From a virus: 64,000 bases of DNA. Within the stretch, counting starts at the first letter, position 1. Each line of letters begins with the position of its first letter. Positions 17,074 to 18,917 of this stretch are shown piece by piece. The stretch spans positions 1 through 64,000 of the IMG/VR virus record IMGVR_UViG_3300009081_000009. One strand, 5' to 3'. Position numbers and translations under genes: made by a program. Below the pieces are notes generated by a model. It saw only the letters and a program-made list of their open reading frames with translations, made no database searches and was not told where the DNA came from.

Positions 17074-17427
17074 ATGAAGGTATATATGTATTTAGATTAC
17101 GAAAAGAAAGAAATTATAACCAGAATATTCACAAGTCCTGATATAGCTATAATTAAAATAAATAATAAATCAAAACCAAAAACTTGGGGACAAGCTAAAT
17201 ACTGGTTTGACAAAGCATCAAATAATTTAAATCTAGATCCTGATTACTATAAAACAATCGGTTGGGATGAATGGAATGATTTCATGGAAGGTGATAGACC
17301 AGATGATGAAATCTGGCTATTTAAGTTAGAACCAAATAACAACTTCGTTCCATATTCAGAAGGATTCTTCCGTGTCAGAAATGATGAACCAGTTAATTAT
17401 CTGAATCTAAGTGAAATTGATAATTGA
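17074..17427 (+). CDS. Hypothetical protein
   Basis: 117-aa ORF whose stop overlaps the 3' end of the convergent tRNA-Gln. Confidence 0.55.
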   Translation: MKVYMYLDYEKKEIITRIFTSPDIAIIKINNKSKPKTWGQAKYWFDKASNNLNLDPDYYKTIGWDEWNDFMEGDRPDDEIWLFKLEPNNNFVPYSEGFFRVRNDEPVNYLNLSEIDN

Positions 17428-17494
17428 CCTAGCTGGGATCGAACCAGCGTACTTCGGGTCAGAGCCGAATGCACTACCTCTATGCTATAGGTCA
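17424..17494 (-). tRNA. tRNA-Gln(CTG)
   Basis: Cloverleaf TGACCTA...TTCGG-CTCTGAC-CCGAA...GCTGG-TTCGATC-CCAGC-TAGGTCA; U1-A72; CCA not encoded. Confidence 0.92.
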
Positions 17495-17502
17495 TCATTA
17501 TA

Positions 17503-17585
17503 TTGTCCATGTAGGAGTCGAACCTACAGTATCCTTTCGGATGCCAGATTCAAAATCTGGTGAGCTACCATTACTCTAATGGACA
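17503..17585 (-). tRNA. tRNA-Gln(TTG) with atypical long variable arm
   Basis: CCAGA-TTTTGAA-TCTGG anticodon arm; variable arm ATCC-GAAA-GGAT; U1-A72. Confidence 0.88.
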
Positions 17586-17590
17586 TCATA

Positions 17591-17663
17591 TTGTCCGTGC
17601 TGGACTCGAACCAGCATCCTTGTGCTTCAAAGGCACCTGCTCCACCAATTGAGCTAACGGACA
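17591..17663 (-). tRNA. tRNA-Gln(TTG)
   Basis: TGTCCGT acceptor, GTGC-CTTTGAA-GCAC anticodon arm, GCTGG-TTCGAGT-CCAGC T arm. Confidence 0.92.
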
Positions 17664-17669
17664 TCAAAT

Positions 17670-17759
17670 TTATTTATCACATTTAGAACACTTAATTTCA
17701 TTATTATAAGTGAAATATAATAATGAACCACATCTATCACACATCTTTACATAATACAT
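17670..17759 (-). CDS. 29-aa C4 zinc-ribbon microprotein MYYVKMCDRCGSLLYFTYNNEIKCSKCDK
   Basis: Strong SD GAGGTG; CxxC-x13-CxxC; fills the gap between terminator T3 and the first tRNA-Gln. Confidence 0.7.
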   Translation of the reverse strand: MYYVKMCDRCGSLLYFTYNNEIKCSKCDK

Positions 17760-17776
17760 ATACACCTCTATATACG

Positions 17777-17804
17777 AAAAGAACTCTTGCTTCTGCAAGA
17801 GTCC
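17777..17804 (-). terminator. Attenuator terminator T3 upstream of the tRNA-Gln block
   Basis: GGACTCTTGC-AGAA-GCAAGAGTTC-TTTT. Confidence 0.8.
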
Positions 17805-17827
17805 CTAATTTATTTGACATAGCAACA

Positions 17828-17890
17828 TCAATCAGGTGGTCTAGCAGAGCTATCCATTACTTGTTGTTGCTGTTGTTGATTTGTCTTCAT
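17828..17890 (-). CDS. Leader peptide L3 MKTNQQQQQQVMDSSARPPD (Gln sensor)
   Basis: Six consecutive Gln codons (CAA CAA CAG CAA CAA CAA); ATG at the predicted +1 of a consensus promoter; followed by T3 and three tRNA-Gln. Confidence 0.85.
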   Translation of the reverse strand: MKTNQQQQQQVMDSSARPPD

Positions 17891-17896
17891 ATTACT

Positions 17897-17925
17897 AATA
17901 TAGTTCTTTTTTAGTGTTTTGTCAA
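17897..17925 (-). promoter_or_regulatory. Sigma70-type promoter driving leaderless L3
   Basis: TTGACA-N17-TATATT, with ATG 6 nt after the -10 box. Confidence 0.85.
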
Positions 17926-17945
17926 TACTTTTTTATATTTTTTAG

Positions 17946-18017
17946 TGATCCCACAGGAAATCGAATCCTGCTCCACGGATTAAAAGTCCGTTGCTTAACC
18001 TTCCAAGCTCTGAGATC
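17946..18017 (-). tRNA. tRNA-Lys(TTT), divergent (G8, 4-nt variable loop)
   Basis: ACGGA-CTTTTAA-TCCGT anticodon arm; CAGGA-TTCGATT-TCCTG T arm. Confidence 0.85.
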
Positions 18018-18023
18018 ATATAG

Positions 18024-18095
18024 TGGTTCCACAGGGATTCGAACCCTGTTCCATCGGTTAAGAGCCGATTGCATCTCCTATTATGCTTTGGAACC
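18024..18095 (-). tRNA. tRNA-Lys(CTT) (A8, 4-nt variable loop)
   Basis: ATCGG-CTCTTAA-CCGAT; GGTTCCA/TGGAACC acceptor. Confidence 0.88.
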
Positions 18096-18099
18096 TTAG

Positions 18100-18174
18100 T
18101 GGAACTGGTGGGACTTGAACCCACGACCCATCGCTTAAAAGGCGATTGCTCTAAACCAACTGAGCTACAATTCC
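18100..18174 (-). tRNA. tRNA-Lys(TTT)
   Basis: ATCGC-CTTTTAA-GCGAT; canonical D and T arms. Confidence 0.95.
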
Positions 18175-18177
18175 ATA

Positions 18178-18249
18178 TGGGTGTGGAGAGATTTGAACTC
18201 TCGACTCGCTGATTAAAAGTCAGCTACTCTACCACTGAGTTACACACCC
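18178..18249 (-). tRNA. tRNA-Lys(TTT)
   Basis: GCTGA-CTTTTAA-TCAGC; GGGTGTG/CACACCC acceptor. Confidence 0.95.
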
Positions 18250-18250
18250 T

Positions 18251-18287
18251 AAAAAATAAAAAACCTCACAACAACTGTTGCGAGGTT
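18251..18287 (-). terminator. Attenuator terminator T2 upstream of the tRNA-Lys block
   Basis: AACCTCGCAAC-AGTT-GTTGTGAGGTT-TTTTATTTTTT; 5' arm also complementary to GCGAGGTT in leader L2. Confidence 0.9.
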
Positions 18288-18311
18288 CAGTGAAAATCAT
18301 ATAATATGATG

Positions 18312-18371
18312 TTACACAACAACCTCGCTTGGTTGCTTTTTCTGTTTATTTTGTTTACTAATCATCTGCAT
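18312..18371 (-). CDS. Leader peptide L2 MQMISKQNKQKKQPSEVVV (Lys/Gln sensor)
   Basis: AGGA SD; 4 Lys and 3 Gln codons within KQNKQKKQ; 3' end carries the antiterminator strand GCGAGGTT. Confidence 0.85.
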   Translation of the reverse strand: MQMISKQNKQKKQPSEVVV

Positions 18372-18401
18372 AATCTTATCCTATTAAAAACATTCATTTA
18401 G

Positions 18402-18473
18402 TGGTTGCACGGGTATCGAACCCGATCTCCAGATTTTCAGTCTAGCGCATCTACCATATATGCTATCACAACC
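18402..18473 (-). tRNA. tRNA-Phe(GAA), atypical acceptor/T-stem junction
   Basis: CTAGA-CTGAAAA-TCTGG anticodon arm; 8 nt before the UA linker and a 4-bp T stem. Confidence 0.75.
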
Positions 18474-18477
18474 ATAG

Positions 18478-18550
18478 TGGTCAGGATCGGAGTTGAACCG
18501 ATGACGCAAGCATTTTCAGTGCTTCGCTCTACCTACTGAGCTACCTGACC
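18478..18550 (-). tRNA. tRNA-Phe(GAA)
   Basis: AAGCA-CTGAAAA-TGCTT; GGTCAGG/CCTGACC acceptor. Confidence 0.95.
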
Positions 18551-18671
18551 ATATAAAAAAGTCACTTTCATCAGTATTTTCACTAAATCGAGATAATCCC
18601 ATTTTTCTATCCTCAAGTAAACTAAGCTACCACTATGCATCTAACTTATAGGTCTAGATACTTGACCTTTA

Positions 18672-18753
18672 TGGATCAGGCAGGATTCGAACCTGCAATG
18701 CCCGAAGGCGGGTGGGTTACAGCCACCTGAACAACCAATTGTTCAACTGATCC
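18672..18753 (-). tRNA. tRNA-Tyr(GTA)
   Basis: GGTGG-CTGTAAC-CCACC; long variable arm GCC-TTCG-GGC. Confidence 0.93.
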
Positions 18754-18759
18754 TTATAG

Positions 18760-18832
18760 TGGATGTGGTAGGATTTGAACCTACTTCCCCTGCATTATGA
18801 GAGCAGTGCTCGACCAATTGAGCTTCACATCC
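18760..18832 (-). tRNA. tRNA with CAT anticodon (Ile2/lysidine type favoured, elongator Met possible)
   Basis: CTGCT-CTCATAA-TGCAG; G1-C72, so not an initiator; leader L1 has two ATA codons. Confidence 0.85.
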
Positions 18833-18836
18833 ATAG

Positions 18837-18917
18837 TGGGTTAGGTAGGGGTCGAACCTACAGTGCCCGAAGGCGGGGGATTTACAGTCCCCGGAGCAAC
18901 CATTGCTCAACTAACCC
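18837..18917 (-). tRNA. tRNA-Tyr(GTA)
   Basis: GGGGA-CTGTAAA-TCCCC; long variable arm. Confidence 0.95.

Follow-up and report, generated by a model that had tools for sequence, protein, structure and literature searches.

How does a phage tRNA with a glutamine anticodon come to carry a long variable arm, and what would become of such a molecule in the infected cell? Reviews confine bacterial long variable arms to Leu, Ser, Tyr and Sec tRNAs (PMC7609411, PMC9976931), and no description of a long-arm tRNA for Gln or Asn, from either phages or bacteria, came up in full-text literature searches. The gene that raises the question lies in the window, by which we mean the whole 64,000-nt stretch of DNA analysed here. 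Its source is an IMG/VR virus record of 164,708 bp with 33% G+C, which CheckV rates as only 39% complete, so that the record represents a fragment of a very large phage.

A well-formed tRNA-Gln with a long variable arm

The first-pass annotation had described a Gln anticodon combined with a stem-loop variable arm, and ARAGORN, Rfam and ViennaRNA all bear this out (Table 1). Rfam model RF00005 inserts 12 nt into the variable region and gives the gene 60.9 bits (E 9.4e-12), a score at least as high as those of several canonical tRNAs of the same cluster. The five-arm cloverleaf is also the minimum-energy fold predicted by ViennaRNA (-28.7 kcal/mol; z -3.26 relative to shuffled sequences).

In the ARAGORN structure, the acceptor stem UGUCCAU/AUGGACA with A73 is followed by U8 and A9, and the D arm GAGU-AAUGGUA-GCUC by A26. 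The anticodon arm CCAGA-UUUUGAA-UCUGG has a normal 7-nt loop, and the T arm reads GUAGG-UUCGACU-CCUAC. Between them lies a variable region of 16 nt, C-AUCC-GAAA-GGAU-ACU, compared with 4-5 nt in class I. None of the stems contains a mismatch; G18G19, the UUCGA T loop and a possible A15-U48 pair are kept, and CCA is not encoded in the gene. The gene is thus a genuine, well-formed tRNA.

Table 1 Features of the Gln cassette in window coordinates
Feature	Position	Strand	Basis or remarks
Long-variable-arm tRNA-Gln(UUG), 83 nt	17503-17585	-	ARAGORN, Rfam, minimum-energy fold
Anticodon UUG	17551-17553	-	ARAGORN, position 33; reads CAA, CAG by wobble
Variable-arm hairpin AUCC-GAAA-GGAU, 4 bp	17531-17542	-	5' flank C, 3' flank ACU
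Class-I tRNA-Gln(UUG), trio gene 1	17591-17663	-	Acceptor UGUCCGU/ACGGACA, A73; ARAGORN, Rfam
Class-I tRNA-Gln(CUG), trio gene 3	17424-17494	-	ARAGORN, Rfam
Promoter-like site TTGACA-17-TATATT, upstream of the cassette	17897-17925	-	11/12 match
Leader mini-ORF MKTNQQQQQQVMDSSARPPD, 20 codons	17828-17890	-	QQQQQQ (CAA x5, CAG x1)
G+C-rich hairpin ACUCUUGC-AGAA-GCAAGAGU, then U-rich UCUUUUCG	17775-17806	-	Read from sequence
Small Cys-rich ORF, 42 aa, between leader and tRNA trio	17670-17798	-	CxxC...CxxC

The Gln cassette and its genomic context

ARAGORN places eleven minus-strand tRNA genes within 17424-18917. Three of them form a Gln trio, in which class-I genes for UUG and CUG stand first and last and the focal long UUG gene lies between them, and a promoter-like site, a glutamine-rich leader, a hairpin and a small ORF precede them (Table 1). 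A consensus terminator scan did not call the hairpin, although it is terminator-like. The 123 long ORFs of the phage contain 867 CAA and 443 CAG codons, in keeping with two genes for UUG and one for CUG.

The cassette lies near genes for a portal protein, a head-tail adaptor and a polymerase-exonuclease-like protein; with the portals of T4-like phages the portal shares ~27% identity. In another contig, the portal reaches 79% identity with that of the window, and a Gln trio is present there too, one of whose members is long but has a very different sequence. The record as a whole contains 57 tRNA genes according to ARAGORN and one more found by Rfam only, many of them duplicates. The additional gene is a fourth tRNA-Lys(UUU) (17946-18017, minus strand; Rfam 52.8 bits), which ARAGORN missed. 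A gene for a CCA-adding enzyme (record 114180-114548, plus strand; PolyA_pol family, in a 418-aa open frame) fits the fact that almost none of the phage's tRNA genes encode CCA. No GlnRS or GluRS domain was found in the record, which holds 39% of the genome by the CheckV estimate.

The whole cassette, comprising the promoter, QQQQQQ leader, hairpin, Cys-rich ORF and three tRNAs, recurs at ~98-100% identity, spacers included, in a second contig (window 17330-17960 against L100:2600-3240; IMGVR_UViG_3300033562_000783). The homology ends abruptly on both sides and the flanks do not align, while the exonuclease-like neighbour protein is only 68% identical between the two. The cassette may move as a unit. 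We rejected this comparison as evidence of selection on the tRNA, as the spacers are equally near-identical; such uniform identity points to recent shared ancestry or transfer rather than to constraint on the tRNA. A search for more relatives via the neighbouring exonuclease gene returned the same contig only.

Identity elements

Gln identity in bacteria involves G73, U1-A72, G2-C71, G3-C70, G10, U34, U35, G36, A37 and U38, with U1-A72 serving as a determinant for GlnRS, GluRS2 and the amidotransferases (PMC9976931). The focal tRNA has U1-A72, G2-C71, A73, G10, U34, U35, G36 and A37, and all of these except U34 are common to it and its class-I neighbours. The two acceptor pairs had been pointed out in the first-pass annotation and are indeed present in the ARAGORN structure. 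Departures from the E. coli GlnRS set are A73, U3-A70 and A38. The U-A pair at 3-70, next to an intact G2-C71, is found in the class-I tRNA-Gln(UUG) neighbour as well, and A73 occurs in all three Gln tRNAs of the phage and in 35 of 54 class-I phage Gln tRNAs.

Among phage tRNAs from the same loci, U1-A72 is present in 44/54 class-I Gln tRNAs and, among the matches listed, in 28/34 long-arm Gln tRNAs, where the rest have A-U, G.U or a mis-registered pair and never G-C. Base 73 is A, G or U in both groups. The same pair is found in none of 171 phage tRNAs for Leu (0/84), Ser (0/62) and Tyr (0/25), in which base 73 is A (84/84), G (48/62) and A (25/25), respectively.

Compared with each class-II type in turn, the focal tRNA shares the long arm, A73 and U35 with tRNA-Tyr, but has U34 for G34 and U1-A72 for the G1-C72 found in 23/25 phage Tyr tRNAs. 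A73, A15/U48 and the GG of tRNA-Leu are present, whereas A20a is absent from the 7-nt D loop and there is no Leu-type D arm. With tRNA-Ser it has the long arm in common, but A73 where G73 is expected. These comparisons bear on the known determinants: SerRS recognises the long arm together with G73 (PMC7609411), leucine determinants include A73, A15-U48 and G18G19, and tyrosine determinants include A73 and U35 (PMC9976931).

A long arm would be tolerable to GlnRS on two grounds. Class-I synthetases such as GlnRS and GluRS bind the tRNA with its variable region towards solvent. The classical su+3 mutants of tRNA-Tyr, in which the 1-72 pair is weakened, are mischarged with glutamine.

Nearest relatives of the individual arms

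The first-pass annotation had seen the gene as an identity-switched chimera built on the phage's tRNA-Tyr. We compared each arm of the focal tRNA with all 56 other tRNAs of the genome and with ~900 tRNAs gathered from phage and bacterial loci. Within the genome, the acceptor stem matches that of the adjacent class-I tRNA-Gln(UUG) at 12/14 positions, the next best tRNA reaching 8/14, and the difference amounts to one compensated pair (G6-C67 in the neighbour, A6-U67 in the focal tRNA). The D arm is closest to Glu(UUC) (16/19; Tyr 14/18) and the variable arm to a long tRNA-Asn (12/16; Tyr 8/16). The T arm agrees with that of tRNA-Tyr (18836-18917) at 16/17 positions and equally well with that of Val(UAC), compared with 12/17 for the class-I tRNA-Gln(UUG) neighbour.

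In the ~900-tRNA set, the D arm is best matched by class-I tRNA-Gln genes of other phages, that of Tunturiibacter phage Tunturi_5 agreeing at 17/19 positions. The same holds for positions 8-43, covering the D and anticodon arms, where the Tunturi_5 gene agrees at 31/36, and the top matches are mostly tRNA-Gln. For the variable and T arms together, the best match is the long-arm tRNA-Asn of the T5-like Salmonella phage KKP_3822 (30/33), and that of Pseudomonas phage Milchi reaches 29/33. With the variable region removed, the best class-I Gln body matches at 52/67 positions and the best Leu, Ser or Tyr body at 49/69.

We also scored the tRNA with isotype profile HMMs made from other phages' tRNAs with the anticodon masked. 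In this crude test, in which the Lys profile acts as a generic class-I model, the focal tRNA scored 39.3 with the long-Gln, 28.9 with the class-I Gln, 23.9 with the Ser, 21.7 with the Tyr and 18.8 with the Leu profile. By the same crude measure, its class-I Gln score equals that of the phage's true class-I Gln tRNAs, and its Leu score compares with 39-66 for the phage's real Leu tRNAs.

The resemblance to tRNA-Tyr is therefore real, as seen in the D and T arms and in a shared ACU before the T stem, but it is not specific, and alignment to the phage's Tyr tRNAs reveals no special tie to them among the 56 tRNAs of the genome. We rejected a Tyr origin, as the acceptor, D and anticodon arms are Gln-type and the variable and T arms are nearest to long-arm tRNA-Asn. 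Of the proposed chimera, the Gln marks on a class-II shape remain, and a mosaic origin is plausible because parts of the gene have different nearest relatives; what falls away is Tyr as the scaffold. Judged by these matches, the focal molecule is a tRNA-Gln with an added arm, and its T arm is of a kind often seen in long-arm tRNAs of phages.

Recurrence of long-arm tRNA-Gln in phages

We searched IMG/VR with two patterns. Pattern 1 required UUUGA, the CCGAAAGG hairpin core and the T loop, and 79 viral stretches fitted it; 21 of the 62 matched tRNAs were tRNA-Gln(UUG) of at least 80 nt, and the remainder were Leu(GAG), Ser(UGA) and Asn tRNAs. Pattern 2 left the arm sequence free and combined a D-loop UGGUA, YUUUGA, a long spacer and GGUUCRA. 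It yielded, among the matches listed, at least 18 long-arm tRNA-Gln(UUG) among 25 matched tRNAs in 78 new loci, with varying hairpins such as AGC-GAAA-GCU, GAG-GAAA-CUC and GAGC-GUAA-GCUC. Pooled, the scans gave at least 34 distinct long-arm tRNA-Gln sequences from dozens of unrelated phage contigs.

In 32 of these, the arms mostly have 3-4 bp, often with a GNRA cap, and 1-4 bases after them are unpaired. Across 20 distinct long-arm Gln tRNAs, covariation is seen in the variable stem as well as in the four standard ones: the acceptor, anticodon and T stems are canonical throughout, with up to five pair types per position, and the third pair of the variable stem occurs in five different canonical forms. 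Class-I Gln tRNAs are also present in 23 of 43 long-arm-Gln loci, counting the matches listed and the stretch fetched for each.

The bodies of these tRNAs do not have a single affinity. With the variable region left out, 12 of 32 are nearer to class-I Gln and six nearer to Leu or Ser, and 14 are ties. One long tRNA-Gln, found in four contigs (L027), agrees at 70/84 positions with tRNA-Leu(UAG) from Pseudomonas phage ZC08 and differs from it by A to U at base 35, G-C to U-A at the first pair and A to G at base 73, changes that complete the set of Gln marks known from E. coli. This tRNA looks like a clear remoulding of a Leu tRNA. More than one origin is probable for long-arm tRNA-Gln: some class-II tRNAs would have been remoulded, and some Gln-type bodies would have acquired an arm. 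The focal gene belongs to the latter kind.

Acceptor stems of long and class-I Gln tRNAs might be expected to track each other within a contig, an idea that we dropped because a permutation test over 14 contigs, two of which have identical stems, was not significant (9.0 versus 8.4 of 14, p = 0.12). Stems of the form UGUCC...GGACA are just frequent among these phages. In one lineage (L014:488-668, L016:737-917), Gln(UUG) and Gln(CUG) are both long-arm, with an 8-bp acceptor or an A1-U72 start. ARAGORN also calls Gln(UUG) genes with an enlarged U-rich anticodon arm (L236:6920-7001, L273:4016-4098); these are probably something else, e.g. an intron or a different RNA.

In cellular genomes, pattern 1 gave no Gln among the 67 tRNAs listed from 80 loci in GTDB (one genome per species), which comprised 61 Leu(GAG) and six Ser(UGA). 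Pattern 2 found no tRNA in 1203 genomes from three phyla, a weak negative because the class-I control also found nothing in 61 Bacteroidota. Long-arm tRNA-Gln was thus not found in the cellular genomes searched, which is not to say that it is absent from them.

Other atypical tRNAs

The same record encodes three further long-arm tRNAs with class-I anticodons: His(GUG) (102298-102380, minus strand), with C73, a possible G-1, a Leu-like body and a Leu profile score of 47.5; Asn(GUU) (124025-124109, plus strand), with G73; and Ile(GAU) (133813-133900, plus strand), with A73. In each, the acceptor end fits the isotype named by the anticodon.

Two more genes of the record are unusual in other ways. 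An 83-nt long-arm tRNA-like gene (103227-103309, minus strand) has an 8-nt anticodon loop, UGUAUACG, and an A/U-rich acceptor, and ARAGORN cannot assign it. A tRNA-His(GUG) (101848-101922, minus strand) has an ARAGORN acceptor that starts with CCCC, internal mismatches and no obvious G-1:C73.

Elsewhere among viral loci, over-long tRNAs with class-I anticodons include Pro UGG of 97 nt (L045, L033), Ile UAU of 90-95 nt (L013, L025) and, at several loci, Thr UGU, which extends the phenomenon beyond Gln and Asn. The reverse case is a 77-nt tRNA-Leu(UAA) of Pseudomonas phage ZC08 (L222:663-739), which is class-I-shaped with a 4-nt variable loop.

At E <= 1e-8, 580 records of cultured phages contain homologues of long-arm tRNA-Asn; nearly all of these are full-length and, if they carry an annotation, are labelled tRNA-Asn, without comment. 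We considered the PARIS experiments with T5 tRNA-Asn (PMC12409363) as proof that a long-arm Asn tRNA works, and rejected them: T5's own tRNA-Asn is class I, so these data do not show a long-arm form at work.

Relation to known tRNAs

The focal tRNA resembles the class-I tRNA-Gln(UUG) of its neighbour and of Tunturi_5 in U1-A72, G2-C71, G10, the 4-bp D stem, a D loop of 7-8 nt, the YUUUGAA anticodon loop and the 7/5 acceptor and T stems. It departs from them in its 16-nt variable region with a 4-bp GAAA hairpin, and from the neighbour in its T arm. Long-arm tRNA-Asn(GUU) of T5-like, Slopekvirus-like and phAPEC8-like phages likewise combines a class-I amino acid with a long arm, and the AUCC-GAAA-GGAU hairpin is common to the focal tRNA and the tRNA-Asn of KKP_3822. 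The anticodon, acceptor stem and D arm differ.

Further parallels exist outside this group. The nev-tRNAs of nematodes (PMC3333845, PMC4300185) and other eukaryotic tRNAs with non-canonical V-arms also join a class-II shape to a class-I anticodon, but nev-tRNAs are nematode molecules with a leucine-type body, whereas ours is a phage tRNA with a Gln-like body and Gln-type acceptor marks. The allo-tRNAs and (8/4) tRNA-Ser/His of Mukai et al. (PMC5389517) have a long arm and an ill-fitting anticodon and come partly from phage clusters; allo-tRNAs, however, are 8/4 or 9/3 and their D arm resembles that of tRNA-Sec, whereas the focal tRNA combines a 7/5 arrangement with a normal D arm. Remoulding, or alloacceptor shift, has been described for mitochondria and eukaryotic nuclei and not for phages (PMC4783518, PMC3923123); some of the long Gln tRNAs of other phages look like Leu tRNAs changed in this way, whereas the focal body is Gln-like.

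Proposed role and alternatives

On balance, we favour the reading that the focal tRNA functions in decoding Gln codons and is charged in the same way as its class-I neighbours. It would be transcribed from one promoter together with the two ordinary tRNA-Gln genes, behind the six-glutamine leader, and after processing its CCA end would be added by a CCA-adding enzyme, one of which the phage encodes. The marks shared with the neighbours, U1-A72, G2-C71, A73, G10, U35, G36 and A37, suggest that it would be charged by the neighbours' route, either directly by GlnRS or by a non-discriminating GluRS and then an amidotransferase. On the ribosome, it would act as an extra decoder for CAA, and for CAG by wobble, with a GNRA-capped hairpin in its variable region.

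Charging by a synthetase that reads class-II tRNAs (LeuRS, TyrRS or SerRS), so that CAA and CAG would partly be read as Leu, Tyr or Ser, is very improbable. The long arm, A73, G18G19 and the possible A15-U48 pair would suit LeuRS, and A73 with U35 would suit TyrRS; a parallel exists in nev-tRNAs with Gly or Ile anticodons, which are leucylated in vitro (PMC3333845). However, the class-I Gln neighbour also has A73 and A15/U48, so these two features do not separate the focal tRNA from class-I Gln, and it lacks the G73 for SerRS, the G34 for TyrRS and A20a. Its U1-A72 has no counterpart among the 171 phage Leu, Ser and Tyr tRNAs, its Leu, Ser and Tyr profile scores lie below those of nearly all real ones (only a Ser(CGA), at 20.7, is lower), and the long His, Asn and Ile tRNAs of the genome keep acceptor ends that fit their anticodons. 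A non-functional duplicate, decaying after illegitimate recombination in a crowded tRNA array, is improbable too: the 57-58 tRNA genes of the fragment, with their many duplicates, and the different nearest relatives of the gene's parts would be expected of such an origin, and one long-arm member (L029), with CAUC and then nine U's as its variable region, does look degenerate. The focal gene, by contrast, has flawless stems and an Rfam score on a par with canonical tRNAs of its cluster, and many unrelated contigs contain tRNAs of this form, in which the variable stem shows compensatory changes.

It also seems unlikely, if somewhat less so, that the tRNA works outside translation as a decoy, sequestering a host tRNase, a toxin or some other factor that binds tRNA. 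Its redundancy with the adjacent class-I tRNA-Gln(UUG), mirrored in the 23 of 43 long-arm loci listed that have a class-I Gln, would be in keeping with such a role, and the literature describes both defences that target tRNAs and phage tRNAs that oppose them (PMC10264068, PMC11464382, PMC11555353). A pure decoy would nevertheless have no need of the charging and decoding features, all of which are kept, including the 7-nt anticodon loop and the weak 1-72 pair, and the leader mini-gene points to control by the decoding of Gln codons.

If the focal tRNA is a working Gln decoder, the arm itself calls for an explanation. The first-pass annotation had suggested that the tRNA may evade Gln-specific tRNases or modifying toxins. 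Our leading guess is that the arm alters how host tRNA-targeting nucleases or toxins see the molecule, but it may just as well have arisen by recombination between densely packed tRNA genes and simply be tolerated. Phage tRNAs are known to evade tRNA-targeting defences through changes in the anticodon arm (PMC10264068, PMC11464382, PMC11555353, PMC12409363), and tRNA-Gln is reported to be a substrate of CdiA-CT EC869 (PMC9071432) and of Cas13a (PMC11042736). A broader reading, which we put forward tentatively and hold to be possible rather than likely, is that the arm is adaptive and that phages have acquired it independently on several occasions. It would leave the tRNA chargeable while letting it escape host enzymes that cleave or modify tRNAs, or would mark it for a phage factor. 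This reading would take in the tRNA-Gln together with the long-arm Asn, His and Ile tRNAs of the same genome. Evasion by means of the arm, if it takes place, would rely on tRNA structure and would differ from the substitutions in the anticodon loop described so far.

The occurrence of long-arm tRNA-Gln in dozens of unrelated phage contigs contrasts with the rule that reserves long arms for Leu, Ser, Tyr and Sec tRNAs (PMC7609411, PMC9976931). For annotation, this means that isotype calls based on shape will misfile long-arm tRNA genes for class-I amino acids. If cognate charging holds true, GlnRS or GluRS, AsnRS, HisRS and IleRS would all tolerate an added arm, and phages would constitute a natural library of tRNA bodies for the engineering of orthogonal or tagged tRNAs. 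Should the arm protect from tRNA-targeting immunity, it would represent a new mechanism in the tRNA arms race between phages and their hosts.
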